Source of the DNA: Microbacterium sp. | GTDB lineage: Bacteria > Actinomycetota > Actinomycetes > Actinomycetales > Microbacteriaceae | Assembly: GCF_011620665.1 (NCBI RefSeq) | Contig: NZ_WOYQ01000006.1 | Span: forward strand, 4,168-68,167 | Direction of reading: 5' to 3' | Length of the DNA: 64,000 nucleotides | Shown here: in pieces, positions 23,511-31,088 of the stretch | Layout: each line of letters opens with the position of its first letter | Numbering within the stretch: the first letter of the stretch is position 1 | Notes under the pieces: generated by a model | What the model saw: the letters and a program-made list of their open reading frames with translations, nothing else | The model's database searches: none | What the model was told of the DNA's origin: nothing | Program-made: the position numbers and the translations under genes

Positions 23511-25400
23511 ATGGCCATCGCCGACATCGTCACCCGCCAGACCCCGAACGACCGCGCCGACGGCAGTGCGACAGTACCCCGCTACGGGGAGCGTCCTCGG
23601 ATCACCGGGCCTTCGATGGCGGAGTTGGAGGCGTGGGTGGCGGAGATCGCCGAGCTCACTCAGCCCGCCCGCATCCACTGGGTCGACGGGTCGCGCGCGG
23701 AGAACGACGCTCTCCTGCGCGAACAGGTCGACGAGGGCAAGCTGATCAAACTCAACCCCGAATGGCGTCCCGGGTCGTACCTCGCTCGTTCGCACCCGAG
23801 CGACGTCGCCCGCACGGAGGCGCGCACCTTCATCGCCTCCGAGAGGGAAGAAGATGCCGGGCCCACGAACAACTGGGTTGCACCGGCGGAGATCCGCGCG
23901 ACCATCACGCCGCTCTTCCGCGGCTCGATGCGCGGTCGAACGATGTACGTCGTGCCGTTCTCGATGGGTCCCGTCGGCGGCCCGCTCTCGCACATCGGGG
24001 TTCAGATCACCGACTCGGCGTACGCCGTCACCTCGATCGGGATCATGACCCGCGTCGGCACCGAGGTGCTGGAGCAGATCGCTGCGGGCAAGCCCTGGGT
24101 GAAGACCGTCCACTCGGTCGGCGCACCGCTCGCAGCGGGCGAAAAGGACGTCGCGTGGCCGTGCAATGACGAGAAGTACATCGTGCACTTCCCCGAAACC
24201 CTCGAGGTCTGGTCATTCGGCTCCGGCTATGGCGGCAACGCGATCCTCGCCAAGAAGTGCTTCGCCCTGCGTATCGCGTCGGTCATCGGCCGGGATGAGG
24301 GTTGGCTCGCCGAGCACATGCTCCTCATCCGCGTGATCGACCCGAAGGGGAAGGCGTACCACCTGGCCGCCGCATTCCCCTCCGCGTGCGGCAAGACGAA
24401 CCTGGCGATGCTGCGTCCGACGATCCCCGGCTGGCGCGTGGAGACGCTCGGCGACGACATCGCGTGGATCCGGCCCGGCGAGGACGGACGTCTGCACGCC
24501 ATCAACCCCGAAGCCGGGTTCTTCGGCGTTGCTCCGGGAACGGGCCAGTCCACCAACGTCGCCGCGGTCGAGACCCTGTGGGGAAACACCATCTTCACGA
24601 ATGTCGCCTTGCGTCCGGACGGCGATGTCTGGTGGGAGGGTCTCACCGATGAGGTGCCGGCCGAACTCATCGACTGGGAGGGGAACGCGTGGACCCCGGC
24701 ATCCGGCCGCCCCGCCGCCCACCCCAACTCTCGCTTCACCGTTGCAGCGGCCCAGTGCCCGCAGATCGCTCCCGACTGGGAGGCTGCTGAGGGTGTCCCG
24801 CTCGATGCGATCCTCTTCGGCGGTCGTCGGGCCACGAATGTGCCGCTGGTGCTCGAGGCCACGGACTGGACGCACGGCGTGTTCCTGGGGTCGAACATCT
24901 CGTCCGAGCGCACGGCGGCCGCCGAGGGCACGGTCGGGGAGCTTCGCCGCGACCCGTTCGCAATGCTTCCGTTCTGCGGGTACAACATGGCGGACTACTT
25001 CGCCCACTGGCTCGATGTGGGCCGGAAGCTGCGCTTCGATCGCGCGCCGCGGATCTTCCAGGTGAACTGGTTCCGCAAGGGCGCGGACGGCCGGTTCCTG
25101 TGGCCCGGTTTCGGCGACAACTCGCGCGTCATCGAGTGGATCATCCGTCGCATCGATGGCAGCGTGCCCGCGGTCGACAGCCCCATCGGCCGTCTGCCGC
25201 GGACGGAGGATCTGAACCTCGACGGGATCCACGTACCGCAGGAAGACCTCGACGAGCTCTTCGCGGTCGACCCGGAGCTCTGGCTGCACGAAGCCGACCT
25301 CACAGAGGAGTTCTACCAGACCTTCGGGGGCAAAGTGCCTGCGGCGCTCTACTCGGAGCTCGCTGCCCTGCGTTACCGGCTCAAGCTCGCGCAGCGCTGA
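23511..25400 (+). CDS. pckG: GTP-dependent phosphoenolpyruvate carboxykinase
   Basis: [45 protein letters not shown]; AAGGAG RBS before 23511. Confidence 0.97.
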
Positions 25401-25449
25401 CGGCTCAGAGATCGGTCCGTACTGAACGAGGAGTCGAGCCGCAGCCCCG

Positions 25450-25755
25450 TCAGGGGACGGTGATGCGGCTCACGCGCACCGTGACACGCGCATCCGGTTC
25501 GTCGAGCACGGCGCGCACTCGCGCGGCAACGGTGCGAGCCACATCGGCCGCGCGTCCGTGGGAGACGCCGATGCTGACGACTGCCTCAAGCACCCCATTG
25601 CGCCGCAGCACGTCGCTGTAGACCTCTCGTCGCTCTACGGTCGCGGTCCATAACCGGGCAGGGAGTGCCGCGGCGTGGTACAGCTCTGCCACCCCCGACA
25701 CCTCACGGACGGCAGCGTCGACCTGTGCGATCAGTTCGGCGACTTCTCGCATCAT
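25450..25755 (-). CDS. Small Asp23-like hypothetical protein
   Basis: Coupled to upstream gene; VSGVAEL...VARTVAARVRAVL..RVTVRVSRI resembles the Asp23/Gls24 pattern. Confidence 0.6.
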   Translation of the reverse strand: MMREVAELIAQVDAAVREVSGVAELYHAAALPARLWTATVERREVYSDVLRRNGVLEAVVSIGVSHGRAADVARTVAARVRAVLDEPDARVTVRVSRITVP

Positions 25756-26330
25756 CGGCTCTCCCCCTGCAGTCGCAGGGAGTCGATGGTGACATCCACC
25801 CGATCGACCGCCCAGGTCGTGTGCTCGAGGAGTGCGCGGCGTACTTCGTTGCGCACGTCCCCGGCGACGGTCGGCAGGGTCAGTCCGTGCAGAACGCTGA
25901 TCGACAGCGCGATGCTGACCGTGCGTGCACCGTCCGGCGCTGCGCCGTCGATCAGCACCTCGACGCGCTCGACCAGTACCCCGGGCACCCTGTCTCCCGC
26001 TGCGCGCACGAGGCCGCGCACCGCGCCCTCGGTCACAACGAGCTGGACGTCACCTCCGCCTTCCATCGGCATGTCCCTGCCTGCACGCGACTCGCGCGCG
26101 ACTTGCCCCAGGATCTTCTGCAACCACGATTCCGAGAGGTCGAGCGCGGAGTCGCTCTCGAGGAGATTCCGCGAGAGCATCCCGAGGTGATCCATCGAAT
26201 CCAGCACCGAGCAACACTGCGGGTCGCCGTCGATCGCCGGATCCGCGGGAACACGGCCGCGATCGTGGTACGCAGCGAGATCCTCGAGGGTGTACCCCGA
26301 CTCGCCGATGCCGTCTCCCATGGCGTTCAC
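25752..26330 (-). CDS. Putative anti-sigma: degenerate ZAS-like N-terminus fused to Asp23/Gls24 domain
   Basis: Overlaps sigma stop; LEDLAAYHDRG..IDGDPQCC; C-term AVRGLVRAAGDRVPGV..VAGDVRNEVRRAL..VDRVDVTI; start GTG 26330 or ATG 26321. Confidence 0.7.
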   Translation of the reverse strand: MNAMGDGIGESGYTLEDLAAYHDRGRVPADPAIDGDPQCCSVLDSMDHLGMLSRNLLESDSALDLSESWLQKILGQVARESRAGRDMPMEGGGDVQLVVTEGAVRGLVRAAGDRVPGVLVERVEVLIDGAAPDGARTVSIALSISVLHGLTLPTVAGDVRNEVRRALLEHTTWAVDRVDVTIDSLRLQGESR

Positions 26331-26872
26331 CTCCACTCCTGCATGCGTTGATAGATTGTCGCGCGTGCGCGGGCGAGGCGGCCACGGACAGCCGTCCCGG
26401 AGATGCCCATTTCGCGGGCGATCTCGTCGTATCCGTATCCACTGGCTTCGCGCAGCAACCATACGGTGCGCTGTTCGAGAGGCAGGCTGTCGATCACGGC
26501 CCTCAGCGAGTCCAGCTGGGAGGACGTGATCGCCGCCTCATCGGGGCGCGGTGCGGTCGCGACCGGCTCCGCGTCGTCGATGCGCGTCGTCGGCCGGGCC
26601 GAGCGCAGCCGGTCGGTGGCCTTCCGCGCGACGATGGCCGACAGCCAGGCGCGCACCTGCGCGGGGTCTCGCAGATCGGGCAGCCGGCGCCACGCGACGA
26701 TCAACGCCTCCTGCACACAGTCATCGGCATCGGAGCGAGAGCCCAGAAGTCGGGTCGCGAAGCCGAGGAGATACCCCCCGTGCCGGCGCACAAGCGTGGC
26801 GAAGGCCCGCTCATCGCCGTCGGCGGCGCGCCTTGCGAGGATCGCATCCTCGATATCTGCCCACGAATCCAT
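26327..26872 (-). CDS. ECF sigma-70 factor
   Basis: Region 2 DADDCVQEALIVAWRRL, region 4 LPLEQRTVWLLRE..YDEIAREMGISGTAVRGRLARAR. Confidence 0.93.
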   Translation of the reverse strand: MDSWADIEDAILARRAADGDERAFATLVRRHGGYLLGFATRLLGSRSDADDCVQEALIVAWRRLPDLRDPAQVRAWLSAIVARKATDRLRSARPTTRIDDAEPVATAPRPDEAAITSSQLDSLRAVIDSLPLEQRTVWLLREASGYGYDEIAREMGISGTAVRGRLARARATIYQRMQEWR

Positions 26873-27079
26873 CGTTCTCCTGAGCGGGATCTCGCATCCC
26901 GCCTCACCGAGGGTGCCACACGCACCCGGAGTTTCCGCGGGGGTTGCGATCCGGACGGCGGCATGCTGTGCAGGGCCGCGCTCAGGAAACTGCCAGCATC
27001 ACGACCGTGACGAATCGGCCGCGGCGGACGTCTCACTCCTGAACGCCCCCGCACGAGGGGCCGCGGAAAGGACCACATC

Positions 27080-27508
27080 ATGGCCACCACGAACATGCCT
27101 GCTGCCGGATCGAGCGTCGGAGCCGTTATGCCTGCGGAGCAGGGCAAGACCGTCATCGTCGACCCGGTCATCGCGAAGATCGCCGGAATCGCGGCGGCGT
27201 CCGTTCCCGGCGTCTACGCCCTCGGAGGTGGAGCGGCGCGCGTCCTCGGCAGCATCCGTGAGGCGGTCGGTGCGAAGGACCTCTCTCAGGGAGTGAGCGT
27301 GGAGGTCGGCGAGACACAGGTCGCTGCCGACATCACGATCGTCGCTGAGTACCCCGTACAGCTGCAGCGGGTCGCCCAGGATGTGCGCGGTGCGGTCGCC
27401 GACGCCATCACCCAACTCGCCGGGATGGAGGTCGCGGAGATCAATGTGACCGTCGTCGATGTCCGGATTCCCGGTGACGAGGACTCGGCTCCGGAGCGTG
27501 TCCAGTGA
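27080..27508 (+). CDS. Asp23/Gls24 envelope stress protein
   Basis: GKTVIVDPVIAKIAGIAA..VPGVYALG, GVSVEVGETQVAAD, EINVTVVDV; AAAGGA RBS. Confidence 0.92.
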   Translation: MATTNMPAAGSSVGAVMPAEQGKTVIVDPVIAKIAGIAAASVPGVYALGGGAARVLGSIREAVGAKDLSQGVSVEVGETQVAADITIVAEYPVQLQRVAQDVRGAVADAITQLAGMEVAEINVTVVDVRIPGDEDSAPERVQ

Positions 27509-27693
27509 CACCGATCGCCTGGGGAGCGACGGTGGGCGCTATTCTGGCGTTCGCCGCCCTCGCCTTCGGCTTCTGGGGAATGGTGCTCGTTGCCGCGTTG
27601 GCGGCCGTCGGCGGACTCATCGGCGGCGCCGTGTCCGGACGCATCAACGTCCGTGCGGGTCTCGACGCCGCCCGCGGACGGCGAGTGGGCTGA
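27505..27693 (+). CDS. Small membrane protein (DUF2273-like)
   Basis: 62 aa, two hydrophobic segments, typical position after asp23. Confidence 0.75.
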   Translation: MTPIAWGATVGAILAFAALAFGFWGMVLVAALAAVGGLIGGAVSGRINVRAGLDAARGRRVG

Positions 27694-27695
27694 TC

Positions 27696-28007
27696 ATGGA
27701 CGCCATGCAGCTGCCTGGCCGGGTCATGATTGCGGCTCGGGCCTACGAGCGTGTCGCTGCGACCGTGATCGCCGACGAACTCGGAGTCGCCGCGCGGGGC
27801 GCCCGCGCCGTCGTGCGCGACGCCGACGGAGCGATCGCCGCGGATCTCACCTGCGGCATCGGTCTCGGCGAAGCGCCGATAGCGCAGCGCGCCGCACGGG
27901 CGCGCACGCGTACCGCCGAGAGGCTGGCTGAGATCACCGGCGCCCGGGTGGCCGATGTGCGACTACGCGTGTCCCATGTCGTCGATGAACGGGGGGGAGC
28001 ATCGTGA
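27696..28007 (+). CDS. Small Asp23-like hypothetical protein
   Basis: PGRVMIAARAYERVAA..LAEITGARVADVRLRV; coupled to neighbours. Confidence 0.65.
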   Translation: MDAMQLPGRVMIAARAYERVAATVIADELGVAARGARAVVRDADGAIAADLTCGIGLGEAPIAQRAARARTRTAERLAEITGARVADVRLRVSHVVDERGGAS

Positions 28008-28594
28008 CCCACGAGCCGGCGCCGACAGCTGTCGCCGATCAGCGCCGCGACGCCCGTCTCGCGCGTCGCCTCCTGCACCGCACCCGAAGCATATGGGTGT
28101 CCATCGCTCTGATCCTCGCAATGGCCCTCGCGATCCTCGTGATCGTCGAGACGCTTCTGTGGGGACGAGACCTGCCTCCCGCACTCGTGGCTCCTGACGC
28201 GGTGCGCGCCGCTATGACCGAAGGAGGATTCTTCGGCGGCGTGGTCGCGGGGATCGCGCTCGTGCTGGGCCTGGCGTGCCTCTGGGGCGCCCTCGCCCCC
28301 GGCGGCACGCACCGCCGCATCGTGACGACCGAGCGCGCGCCGATCGTCGTCGACGACGCGATCCTGGCGGGTGGGCTCTCGCGGACCTGCGCGCATGCGG
28401 CGGGCGTATCGGCGACGCAGGTCACGACGCGGGTCACCCGGCACCGCGCCCTCATCGCCGTGACACCCTCGAGCGGCTTCGCGGTCGACGCGAGCGAGGT
28501 CGAGCGCGCCGCCGGCGAACTGCTCGAGGTCCTCGGTGCAGGAACGCACATGAAGACCCGGGTAGAGCTGGCCAGGAAAGGAAACCTGTCATGA
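28004..28594 (+). CDS. Membrane protein, AmaP/DUF6286-like
   Basis: Two TMs then a cytoplasmic domain; GTGA overlap with previous gene. Confidence 0.7.
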   Translation: MTHEPAPTAVADQRRDARLARRLLHRTRSIWVSIALILAMALAILVIVETLLWGRDLPPALVAPDAVRAAMTEGGFFGGVVAGIALVLGLACLWGALAPGGTHRRIVTTERAPIVVDDAILAGGLSRTCAHAAGVSATQVTTRVTRHRALIAVTPSSGFAVDASEVERAAGELLEVLGAGTHMKTRVELARKGNLS

Positions 28595-29148
28595 ATGCCC
28601 GCGGTCGCGTTCTCAACCGGACGCTGCTCACGCTGCTCGCTCTGACCGCCTTCGCCGTCTGCGCAGTGGCAGCATGGCCGCTCGTCACCGGTGCACCCGC
28701 GCCCGTGCTGGATCAGGGGGCGCGTTTCGCGGAGGAACTCGGAGTCGGCTTGCCGGCTCTCATGTGGGTCGGCGTCGCCCCGCTGGTCGTCGCGGTCATC
28801 GTCGCCCTCGCCGTGATCCTGACCCGCCCACCGCGGCACGTTCGCGCTGCGTTCGAGGACGGCGGGCTCACGATCGACGCGGCGGTCGTCGAAGGGGTCT
28901 TCCACTCGGCGCTGGCTGCGACGCCCGACGTGCTCGGCGTCTCGTCATCGACCTCGGAGCACCGGCGTCGACGCACGGTCGTGCTCCGGGTGCGGGTGCG
29001 GCCTCGCGCTGACCTGGAGACCGTGCTGACCCAGGTGCGGTCGGCCCTCGAGACGACCGACCGACGGATCGGCGTGCGCCTGCCGTTGATCGTGCACATC
29101 ACGGGTGGCATCCGCTCGACGTTCGCGCACGACCGGCGAGTGGTGTGA
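28591..29148 (+). CDS. AmaP-like membrane anchor protein
   Basis: NRTLLTLLAL TM, second TM, C-terminal beta-rich domain (VLRVRVRPRAD); ATGA overlap. Confidence 0.7.
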   Translation: MNARGRVLNRTLLTLLALTAFAVCAVAAWPLVTGAPAPVLDQGARFAEELGVGLPALMWVGVAPLVVAVIVALAVILTRPPRHVRAAFEDGGLTIDAAVVEGVFHSALAATPDVLGVSSSTSEHRRRRTVVLRVRVRPRADLETVLTQVRSALETTDRRIGVRLPLIVHITGGIRSTFAHDRRVV

Positions 29149-29192
29149 TCCGTCGGCGGCGCGGCGGCGCTGCGGCGCGGCGGGGGATCGGC

Positions 29193-31088
29193 TCACACCA
29201 GCAGCTGGTGCCGAGCGAGTTCGCGGTACAGCGGCACGGTCTCGACGAGGTCGGAGTGGGTTCCCTGCCCGACAACCGTGCCGTGGTCGAGCACGATGAT
29301 CAGATCGCTGTCGACCACGGTCGACAGCCGGTGCGCGATCACAACGAGGGTCCGCCCGGTCGCGACGGCATCGATCGCGTCGCGCATCCTCTGTTCGTTG
29401 AGCCCATCAAGCGACGACGTCGACTCATCCAGGAGCAGGATCGGCGGGGCTGCCAGCAGTGCACGTGCGATCGCCAGCCGCTGACGTTCACCACCCGAGA
29501 GCATGACGCCGCCCTCGCCGACCGGAGCGTTCAGCCGGAGGGGACTGCGCTCCAGCACCTCACCGAGATTCACGGCGCGGAGCACTCTCTCGCATTCGGC
29601 ATCACTCGCGGCGGGCGAAGCGAGCCGCAGATTCTCGGCGATCGTGCCGGCCAGGGTCGGGGCATCCTGCTCGACGTACCCCAGTTGCGCGCGCAGGTCA
29701 CGCCGGTCGAGAGTGCGCACATCCCGCCCGTTCAGGAGTATTGCACCCTCGCTCGGGTCGTAGAACCGTTCGATGAGGGCGAGCGTCGTCGACTTGCCGG
29801 CGCCCGACGGACCGACCAGGGCGACACGCGCTCCACGCGGCACGCGGAACGAGACCCCGCGCAGCACCTCACGAGGGGAGGCCTGTTCCGCCGATGGCAG
29901 AGTGATCGCCGCGGAGTCGACGTGGGCGTCTTCGAGGGCCGCAAGTGCCTCGGTCTCGGCCTTGCGTCGAGCCGCGACGACGTGCTCGGGATACCGGAAG
30001 CGGACGTCGCGGAACTCGAGTGCATCTGACCCCGCGACGTCGCCGACCGCGCCGCGGGCGAGGTGCGGATCGCCCGCGGTCTCGGTCGGCAGATCCAGAA
30101 TCTCCTGGATGCGTCCGAGGGCGCCCAGCGCCTGATTCACGGAGGTGATCGCCCCGAAGAAGGATCCGAGCGGCGCCACAAGCAGGAAGAGGAACATGAC
30201 GAAGGTGATCAGGCTCGCGATCGGGATCGCGCCGGATGCCACGCGGAACCCGCCGAGGCCGAGCACCACCAGCAGCGACACCTGAAGAGCGATGCCGGCG
30301 ATCGGGACGACGAGCGCCGACACCTTCGCGATCCTCACGCCGATGCCGTAGACGTCGGTCGCGACGGCGGTCACCGCTTCGGTTTCGCGGTCGGTGGCAC
30401 CGGCGGCGCGTACGGTGCGGATCGAGCCGATGGCTCGCTCGACGCCGGAGGCGAGTTCGCCGACCTTCTCCTGCTGCTGCTGTGTCGCCCGGCGGATGCG
30501 GCCGCTCAGCAGGGCGACGCCCCCGACAGACAGGCCGATGACGACGACGATCGCCACCAGCAGGATCGGGTCGAGGAAGGCCATCGCGAGGATCGCTCCG
30601 ATGAAGAGCAGGGCATTGCCGACCGAATCGGCGAGGCCCTGGGTCAGTACGGCGTAGAGAAGCGTCGTGTCGGTGCCGACCCGTGAAACGAGATCTCCGG
30701 TGCGGCGCGAGTCGAATTCGCTGATCGGGAGGTGGAGGATCCGGGCGATCAGCTGGCGCCGTGACGAATAGACGACGGCGGTGCCTGTGCGCTGCAGGAG
30801 ATAGTGCTGGTATCCCGTGATGAGCGAACCTCCGATCACGAGAGCGACGATTCCCCAGATGAGCGTCCCGAGACCTTGTTCGTTCTGCACCCGCTCGATG
30901 ATCTGCCCCACCAGCAGCGGCTGGGCGAGAGTTGCCCCGGCGCCGACGATGCTCAGCACGACGATCAGGACGAGGACGCGCTTGTGCTCGAAGATGTAGG
31001 GGAGCAGTTGCGTGAGGCGAGCGCGGGGCCCGCCCTCGGGCGCGGAGCGGCGGCCGCGGCGACGCGGTGATGCGGTGGCAGAGGACAT
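29193..31088 (-). CDS. ABC exporter, fused TMD-NBD
   Basis: GPSGAGKST, LSGGERQRLAIAR, LLLDESTS, AHRLST. Confidence 0.95.
   Translation of the reverse strand: MSSATASPRRRGRRSAPEGGPRARLTQLLPYIFEHKRVLVLIVVLSIVGAGATLAQPLLVGQIIERVQNEQGLGTLIWGIVALVIGGSLITGYQHYLLQRTGTAVVYSSRRQLIARILHLPISEFDSRRTGDLVSRVGTDTTLLYAVLTQGLADSVGNALLFIGAILAMAFLDPILLVAIVVVIGLSVGGVALLSGRIRRATQQQQEKVGELASGVERAIGSIRTVRAAGATDRETEAVTAVATDVYGIGVRIAKVSALVVPIAGIALQVSLLVVLGLGGFRVASGAIPIASLITFVMFLFLLVAPLGSFFGAITSVNQALGALGRIQEILDLPTETAGDPHLARGAVGDVAGSDALEFRDVRFRYPEHVVAARRKAETEALAALEDAHVDSAAITLPSAEQASPREVLRGVSFRVPRGARVALVGPSGAGKSTTLALIERFYDPSEGAILLNGRDVRTLDRRDLRAQLGYVEQDAPTLAGTIAENLRLASPAASDAECERVLRAVNLGEVLERSPLRLNAPVGEGGVMLSGGERQRLAIARALLAAPPILLLDESTSSLDGLNEQRMRDAIDAVATGRTLVVIAHRLSTVVDSDLIIVLDHGTVVGQGTHSDLVETVPLYRELARHQLLV

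Follow-up and report, generated by a model that had tools for sequence, protein, structure and literature searches.

We analysed a 64,000-nucleotide stretch of DNA from Microbacterium sp. (contig NZ_WOYQ01000006.1, positions 4,168 to 68,167 of the forward strand; hereafter the window) and concentrated on a locus of eight genes at 25450-29148. Three genes on the minus strand encode an extracytoplasmic function (ECF) sigma factor, a fusion of an anti-sigma-type domain with an Asp23 domain, and a small Asp23-like protein of 101 aa. Five on the plus strand encode Asp23, a DUF2273-like membrane protein, a 103-aa protein, a DUF6286 membrane protein and an AmaP-like anchor. We hold with moderate confidence that the locus is a dedicated and self-contained ECF sigma module which controls the operon of a membrane scaffold formed by Asp23. 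Comparison of many loci gives good support to the proposal that the sigma factor drives the Asp23 operon from a promoter of the form GTGAC-N17-CGTC. The Asp23 operon is thus the predicted target of the sigma factor, and in this genome apparently its only one.

The promoter motif was found by an unbiased count of gapped dyads in upstream regions. Of 67 loci from Microbacteriaceae, Promicromonospora and Arachnia, 61 have GTGAC-N17-CGTC in front of asp23, compared with 10 of 400 random pieces, and four further loci hold near-variants. The aligned asp23 sites read yGTGACGww...CGTC-y-y-A and are always oriented toward asp23. The window has the predicted -35 element GTGACGAA at 27007..27014 on the plus strand and the -10 element CGTCTCA at 27029..27035, 47 nt before the asp23 ATG. 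To judge from its alignment, the asp23 motif has the shape of an ECF promoter of the AAC...CGT type. When 2.19 Mb of loci were scanned with a position weight matrix, 61 of the 80 matches fell at asp23. The same scan of the window's whole genome gave two matches above 17 bits, the top one being the asp23 promoter at 31.5 bits, which is also the sole intergenic match. We tie the motif to the neighbouring sigma factor because its presence tracks that of the sigma gene. It also precedes unlinked Asp23 genes in genomes having the sigma factor, and it is absent from the two Microbacteriaceae genomes with a complete Asp23 operon and no sigma-fusion pair, where the best scores were -17.6 and -8.1 bits. 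Relatives carry the motif before extra Asp23 copies, a GlsB/YeaQ-like gene and a PRC-barrel-like gene as well.

The two operons are also conserved together, a point on which the original prediction depended. A scan of one genome per species gave 79 loci, which belong to many genera of Microbacteriaceae and also to Promicromonospora and Arachnia propionica. Microbacterium supplies the closest named relatives of the 189-aa fusion protein. A set of 1.84 billion representatives, searched with a hidden Markov model (HMM) of the fusion, yielded 94 clusters at E <1e-30; with the limit at E <1e-10 there were 211. In 91 loci we called open reading frames (ORFs) and assigned them by means of HMMs made from the window proteins. 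The sigma gene immediately precedes the fusion gene in 90 of these, the exception being a truncated contig, and the 101-aa gene follows the fusion in most of them. In about 59 of the 91 loci the five-gene Asp23 operon lies beside the sigma-fusion pair with a constant internal order, placed divergently in 33, upstream on the same strand in 24 and downstream in one. About nine loci have asp23 alone, and about 22 have nothing within 5 kb. Since this linkage has survived rearrangement into three gene orders, it points to a functional tie.

The same association is seen between genomes. The N-terminal domain of the fusion is present in 65 of 201 sampled Microbacteriaceae genomes and 39 of 101 genera, and a sample of 401 genomes from the whole phylum has it in only 4; two distant matches at the phylum level keep the order sigma, fusion, Asp23-like gene. 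Among the 201 Microbacteriaceae genomes, 64 have both the N-domain and Asp23, one and two have either singly, and 134 have neither (Fisher's test, p = 5.5e-49, uncorrected for phylogeny). Seven genomes of the same genus that lack the sigma-fusion pair are devoid of Asp23 genes. Many Microbacteriaceae (G432, G435, G485, G557, G604 and others) have the fusion N-domain in two or three copies and, along with it, between two and four Asp23 genes, which suggests parallel paralogous sigma/Asp23 circuits in one cell.

The sigma factor itself (26327..26872, minus strand) has 181 aa and consists of sigma-2 and sigma-4 domains only. Pfam places Sigma70_r2 at residues 27-93 (E 3.5e-16) and r4_2 at residues 121-172 (E 5e-13), and there is no region 1.1 or 3, which is the domain composition of an ECF (group 4) sigma factor. 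The protein scores 89 bits against TIGR02937 (cut-off 42.9) and aligns over its full length with the solved ECF sigma factors CnrH, RpoE and SigE. No NCBIfam equivalog cut-off was reached, the best being SigM with 110 bits against the required 190. In Cryobacterium sandaracinum (L082:5305-5930) the sigma gene is split over three reading frames beside an intact fusion and Asp23 operon, either as a pseudogene or through a sequencing error.

The fusion gene (25752-26321, minus strand) directly follows the sigma gene and encodes 189 aa. We place its start at the ATG at 26321 because this fits the N-termini of homologues. An AlphaFold2 model built on an alignment of 95 sequences has a mean predicted local distance difference test (pLDDT) score of 88. 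The N-terminal domain (residues 1 to about 88; 26058..26321) is modelled with helices at 12-20, 28-31, 34-56 and 64-81, and in this domain W66 and G81 are invariant and Y18, G22, P25 and I30 nearly so. The C-terminal domain (residues about 89-189; 25752..26057, which includes the stop codon) has the fold beta-beta-alpha-beta-beta-alpha-beta with pLDDT above 90. It matches Pfam Asp23 with 23.8 bits (E 6e-5) where the gathering score is 28, and this match recurs in the C-terminal half of each of the 26 family members tested. Compared with Asp23 orthologues by hhalign, the domain reaches 96.6%. A Foldseek search with the whole model returned for this domain only generic ferredoxin-like domains (the C-terminal domain of MamM) and no solved Asp23 structure. 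A search of PDB sequences with the fusion family profile returned a match to a lipoyl domain only, which we judged to be due to chance.

For the N-terminal domain, which has no Pfam match, the connection to known anti-sigma factors runs through intermediates. All 21 distant relatives examined retain C...HxxxCxxC in this domain. The N-domains of the window clade align with those of the zinc-motif relatives at 99.0% by hhalign (E 3.6e-18, 82 columns), and these relatives in turn match genuine zinc-associated anti-sigma (ZAS) domains (86.5%, E 4.6e-6), the four ligand positions all falling in register. A match to Pfam zf-HC2 was seen in 2 of 10 distant relatives and did not reach the threshold in either. 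Because the zinc-motif relatives bridge the window clade and the genuine ZAS domains, the most fitting reading of residues 1 to about 88 is that they descend from a ZAS anti-sigma domain and have become zinc-less. On these alignments the zinc site was lost in the Microbacteriaceae clade. The window protein has Ser/Gly at the position of the first Cys and Ile30, Pro34 and Cys37 at those of H, C and C, so three of the four ligands are lost and zinc or redox sensing is unlikely. Homology and gene position together make the fusion the probable cognate anti-sigma factor. Wherever the N-domain was found, a sigma gene was close by. The description of this protein as an anti-sigma/Asp23 fusion is supported by profile comparison, for the N-terminal half by way of the zinc-motif intermediates.

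From these observations we can outline how the module might work. The sigma factor would recognise GTGACGAA-N14-CGTCTCA at 27007-27035 and transcribe asp23, the DUF2273 gene, the 103-aa gene, the DUF6286 gene and amaP as one translationally coupled unit. The soluble fusion, co-transcribed with the sigma gene, would keep sigma inactive through its approximately 88 N-terminal residues, and its C-terminal Asp23 domain would be the sensor. This domain, probably with the 101-aa protein, would join or leave the assembly of Asp23, AmaP and the DUF6286 protein, and sigma activity would thereby follow the assembly, in its state or its amount, and close a homeostatic loop like that of PspA and PspF. The coupling of the switch to the Asp23/anchor assembly by the Asp23 domain, possibly with the 101-aa protein as partner, is hypothetical. 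Likewise, the recruitment of the anti-sigma factor by a membrane scaffold and the release of sigma under envelope stress, as first proposed, are hypotheses. More specifically, we suggest tentatively, and with less than even confidence, that the Asp23 domain of the anti-sigma factor senses the state of assembly by co-assembling with its 101-aa paralogue and the anchored Asp23 polymer, so that sigma activity reports the amount of intact scaffold.

The natural trigger might be water or membrane stress such as desiccation, which we offer as a lead. In Curtobacterium aetherium the orthologous cluster from Asp23 to DUF6286 is induced by desiccation with a log2 fold change of 6 to 7.7 and shows no response to UV (PMC12029717, supplements). 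The sole physiological lead is desiccation and not a cell-wall or alkaline signal.

Several observations weigh against the reading of a dedicated sigma module with its own anti-sigma factor. For the fusion, the motif HxxxCxxC is absent from the window protein, which has I30-x3-P34-x2-C37 instead. A direct hhalign comparison of its N-domain with ZAS domains harvested from relatives reached only 8% and is not significant, though the register is as expected, and Foldseek with the N-domain alone found no anti-sigma structure (best E 9.6). For the promoter, the second match in the window's genome scores 28.8 bits and lies inside a 1335-aa DUF2126/transglutaminase-like ORF (contig C75:18380-18415), where it encodes the conserved peptide LVTYWQRHPSLS; it is probably a coincidence of that peptide, and an internal promoter is possible. 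The asp23 motif is partly palindromic, and the upstream region of sigma itself holds no copy on the sigma strand (best 10.7 bits). On the comparative side, the statistics of co-occurrence in the 201 genomes are without correction for shared ancestry, though the pattern is patchy within genera. Lastly, the desiccation-induced sigma factor in the Curtobacterium tables is not identifiable as an orthologue through its neighbours.

The points on the fusion raise the question whether this protein is a regulator at all. The fusion and the 101-aa protein might instead be structural Asp23 paralogues and members of the regulon, with sigma controlled by its own transcription or stability. Casas-Pastor et al. 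warn that neighbours of ECF sigma factors may be targets and not regulators (PMC7826278), and the lost zinc ligands, the lack of any anti-sigma signature in the window protein by Pfam, PDB sequence search or Foldseek, and the lack of an obvious autoregulatory sigma promoter would all suit this explanation. It fits less well with an N-domain that is strongly conserved, down to the invariant W66 and G81, that is only found adjoining this sigma factor and that is homologous to full C..HxxxCxxC domains matching ZAS anti-sigma domains. The tight spacing behind the sigma gene, in the classic position of an anti-sigma gene, speaks against it too. We regard it as rather improbable, and continue to read the fusion as the probable anti-sigma factor.

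The palindromic character of the motif bears on a second question, namely which protein reads it. Another ECF sigma factor, or a dimeric transcription factor on the partial inverted repeat (GTGACG...CGTCAC), could in principle bind GTGAC-N17-CGTC. The reverse strand scores up to 10.7 bits, the connection between sigma and site is comparative and not direct, and in Curtobacterium the motif lies antisense upstream of sigma with no recognisable downstream gene. We nevertheless consider this explanation very unlikely. In most loci the element is asymmetric (GTGACGAA as against CGTC-y-y-A) and it always points toward asp23 at promoter-like distances; its shape fits ECF promoters, and its presence tracks the sigma gene, including the two natural cases in which sigma is lacking. 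A promoter read by the neighbouring sigma factor is what we propose. The Curtobacterium sites (L100:5345-5380 and equivalents in L092, L096, L101 and L102) score 14-23 bits and point away from sigma, facing the 3' end of a LigD-like gene; there is no recognisable ORF downstream, and the target could be a small ORF or small RNA.

Since no motif is found on the sigma strand, the autoregulation that is typical of ECF sigma factors is not evident in the divergent layout. Judging from motif positions, only a layout with sigma downstream of the motif would make it plausible, and in the tandem layout read-through from the motif could reach sigma. Two loci of Arachnia propionica (L088:4998 and L093:5000) have on one strand the motif, a gene for a GlsB/YeaQ/YmgE-like membrane protein, and then the sigma, fusion and Asp23-like genes. 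This gives sigma a predicted autoregulated layout and echoes the enterococcal pairing of gls24 and glsB. In three Microbacterium loci (L080:4869, L084:4869 and L085:4887) the sigma gene has a strong motif (about 32 bits) on its own strand, some 490 nt upstream, and asp23 is missing from the interval. The spacer holds an element GATCCGATCCG...TCCGAA that is common to loci still having asp23 there, so it looks like asp23 was deleted with the promoter and leader left behind; the motif there could drive sigma too.

Both promoters of the window locus would lie in the divergent intergenic region of 207 bp (26873..27079), which holds the asp23 promoter and the sigma promoter region. Consensus scans of 25200-29400 found no sigma-70-type consensus promoter and no intrinsic terminator. 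Just upstream of the asp23 -35 element, at 26981-26996 on the plus strand, is CTCAGGAAACTGCCAG. Other divergent loci have an A/T-rich run at this position (TTTTTCCTGAC... on the sigma strand), which stands out against a G+C content of about 70%. Possible roles are an UP-like element for asp23 and a part of the sigma promoter. A GTGGCA-N3-TCG element at 26907-26921 (minus strand, GTGTGGCACCCTCGG) lies about 55 nt upstream of the sigma start and recurs in Microbacterium and Rathayibacter loci. It is a candidate -10 region of a non-ECF promoter belonging to sigma itself.

The architecture of the locus agrees with the two divergent operons of three and five genes that had been described, and we verified the coordinates of all eight ORFs, each of which ends in a single terminal stop codon. 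Their description as translationally coupled holds in part. Overlaps of 4 nt (ATGA or GTGA) join the fusion to the 101-aa gene, asp23 to the DUF2273 gene, the 103-aa gene to the DUF6286 gene, and the DUF6286 gene to that of the AmaP-like anchor. The coupling does not extend in this form to sigma and the fusion, which are separated by 5 nt without overlap, and a GGAGG precedes the fusion ATG; in all 12 loci checked by hand the frames of the two genes differ. The DUF2273 gene and the 103-aa ORF are spaced by 2 nt. Both operons run up against a convergent gene, in one case that of phosphoenolpyruvate carboxykinase and in the other that of an ABC transporter. The window has about 68-70% G+C, and the genome of 2.2 Mb is in 82 contigs. 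With regard to family assignments, Pfam and NCBIfam give firm matches for sigma and Asp23, whereas the Asp23 half of the fusion and the DUF2273, DUF6286 and AmaP matches are below threshold and specific.

The third gene of the sigma operon (25450..25755, minus strand), which overlaps the fusion stop with ATGA, encodes a soluble 101-aa protein without hydrophobic segment or Pfam match. It aligns with Asp23 by hhalign at 94.3% (E 1.1e-7, 94 columns). The succession of sigma, anti-sigma and a third partner is familiar from partner-switching systems, and the 101-aa protein might accordingly act as a cytoplasmic anti-anti-sigma factor, which pairs with the Asp23 domain of the fusion and frees sigma. 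The signal would then enter through the 101-aa protein, by modification, proteolysis or a ligand, and not through the scaffold, and the Asp23 operon would be purely output. We see this as the main rival to our proposal. It draws on the order of sigma, fusion and 101-aa gene, which is kept in most of the 91 loci, even in at least 16 without a nearby Asp23 operon, and in distant relatives. It draws also on the Asp23-like nature of the 101-aa protein and on the ATGA overlap, which ties its synthesis to that of the fusion. The 101-aa gene is, however, weak in some loci, for example in Rathayibacter, where it falls below threshold, and the protein has no recognisable modification site or sensory domain. 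A partner switch would also explain the near-perfect co-occurrence with Asp23 no better than a sensor of scaffold assembly does. All in all we find a partner switch unlikely.

Turning to the products of the Asp23 operon, its first gene (27080..27508, plus strand) encodes a protein of 142 aa that belongs to the Asp23/Gls24 family with 88.9 bits against PF03780 (E 3.8e-25; gathering score 28). Its orthologues across Microbacteriaceae are 49-77% identical. The soluble 103-aa protein (27696..28007, plus strand) is probably Asp23-like: its match to Pfam Asp23 is weak (E 0.05), hhalign gives 83% (E 9e-6) over only 40 C-terminal columns, and comparisons with the other families of the locus, themselves weak, gave nothing better than Asp23. 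We also considered whether it is a free copy of the C-terminal domain of the anchors, an idea rejected at hhalign values of only 19% and 1%. The four Asp23-fold proteins that were expected at this locus are thus three firm ones, the 142-aa protein, the fusion and, by profile, the 101-aa protein, together with a probable fourth in the partially matching 103-aa protein. An extreme use of the domain is seen in a protein of 3237 aa (P0120) with 25 separate matches to the Asp23 part of the profile, that is, a giant Asp23-repeat protein.

Three proteins of the operon are predicted to lie in the membrane. The DUF2273-like protein (27505..27693, plus strand) is 62 aa long, starts with GTG in a GTGA overlap, and is hydrophobic over residues 1-47, enough for about two transmembrane helices. 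It matches PF10031 with 24.3 bits (E 3.2e-5; cut-off 25.4). Its gene and the 103-aa gene hold the same operon positions in 59 loci. The DUF6286 protein (28004..28594, plus strand; 196 aa) matches PF19803 over the full profile length with 28.1 bits (E 3e-6; cut-off 35) and has hydrophobic segments at 26-55 and 70-102. The AmaP-like protein (28591..29148, plus strand; 185 aa) has such segments at 7-40 and 49-84 and matches NCBIfam NF033218 (anchor_AmaP) with 39.8 bits (E 3.8e-10), below the equivalog cut-off of 55; the DUF6286 protein scores 18.5 bits against the same model. The two families are paralogues by hhalign (94.7%, E 6e-8). The proposal of two AmaP-like anchors therefore stands as far as paralogy and the shared plan of two transmembrane helices and a soluble C-terminal domain are concerned, and falls short on orthology to AmaP, for which the equivalog score was missed.

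Both anchors have an Arg-rich N-terminus, and their C-terminal domains are predicted to be cytoplasmic because of hydropathy, charge distribution and the positive-inside rule. A comparison of the soluble domains of the anchors with Asp23 by hhalign was not significant. We had entertained the idea that every soluble domain of the locus is Asp23-like and dropped it, the anchor domains having no detectable profile match. The sigma factor, the fusion, Asp23 and the 101-aa and 103-aa proteins have no membrane segments. With these soluble proteins and the cytoplasmic anchor domains, the whole system can be expected to operate on the inner membrane face, like that of S. aureus.

In that species AmaP anchors Asp23 at the inner membrane face, Asp23 forms filaments, and loss of Asp23 induces cell-wall stress genes (PMC6954212). 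The S. aureus operon of amaP, a DUF2273 gene and asp23 (Mueller et al. 2014, as cited in PMC6954212) shares with the window the trio of cytoplasmic Asp23, small DUF2273 membrane protein and AmaP-type anchor. The staphylococcal asp23 operon is driven by the general stress sigma factor sigma B, whereas the window operon is predicted to be under a private ECF sigma factor. The window differs further in having two anchor paralogues, the AmaP-like one scoring under the equivalog cut-off of NCBIfam, and in its two additional small Asp23-like proteins. In the gls24/glsB stress operon of Enterococcus faecalis, genes of the Asp23/Gls24 and GlsB/YeaQ/YmgE families are co-regulated, and both families are desiccation-induced in Curtobacterium, but the window has no GlsB-like gene and the regulators are different ones. 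The fusion resembles ZAS anti-sigma factors of the RsrA/RshA class (zf-HC2, PF13490) in that its gene lies directly downstream of that of an ECF sigma factor and that it is soluble, with a helical N-domain which is homologous via intermediates. In contrast to RsrA-type proteins it lacks HxxxCxxC and has an Asp23 C-domain with no counterpart there. The likeness to PspA and PspF is one of analogy, since here also a membrane-associated oligomerising effector family would supply the inhibitor of its own transcription factor; the proteins are unrelated, and PspF is an activator for sigma-54 and not an ECF sigma factor.

ECF groups with Asp23 neighbours had been mentioned in the original prediction as a bioinformatic finding, and these can be identified as ECF286 and ECF292, which have several Asp23 (PF03780) neighbours and no canonical regulator (Casas-Pastor et al. 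2021, NAR 49:986, PMC7826278). The same authors proposed the Asp23 proteins as regulators, possibly anti-sigma factors of a novel kind (PMC7826278). A 2022 review reports no experimental data on either group, and our literature search found none, in line with what had been supposed. The window sigma factor resembles both groups, when compared by neighbourhood and not by group models, in having several Asp23 genes nearby and no canonical regulator. It departs from their description in that its partner has a diverged ZAS-type domain ahead of the Asp23 domain and that the other Asp23 genes form a target operon with a defined promoter. To judge from these comparisons, what is new with respect to the earlier work is the separation of regulator from target, the definition of the promoter, the finding of a diverged classical anti-sigma domain and the loss of its zinc site in this clade. 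It seems more likely that the Asp23 domain of the fusion is the input, with the anti-sigma role residing in the N-domain.

Asp23/Gls24 proteins are abundant stress proteins of Gram-positive bacteria whose molecular role is unsettled after decades. In the module described here an Asp23 domain is linked to a sigma/anti-sigma switch, for which the Asp23/AmaP operon is the single predicted output. Because of this single predicted output, a GTGAC-N17-CGTC reporter and eight defined proteins are at hand for finding out to what the scaffold responds. Across Microbacteriaceae the module is tightly gained and lost as a whole, and this, together with the strong induction on desiccation of the orthologous operon in Curtobacterium, points to a role in surviving drying. 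If the anti-sigma factor does sense the state of the assembly, the module would be a Psp-like homeostatic circuit for water and membrane stress in Microbacteriaceae, and would give the first genetic read-out of what Asp23 assemblies sense.

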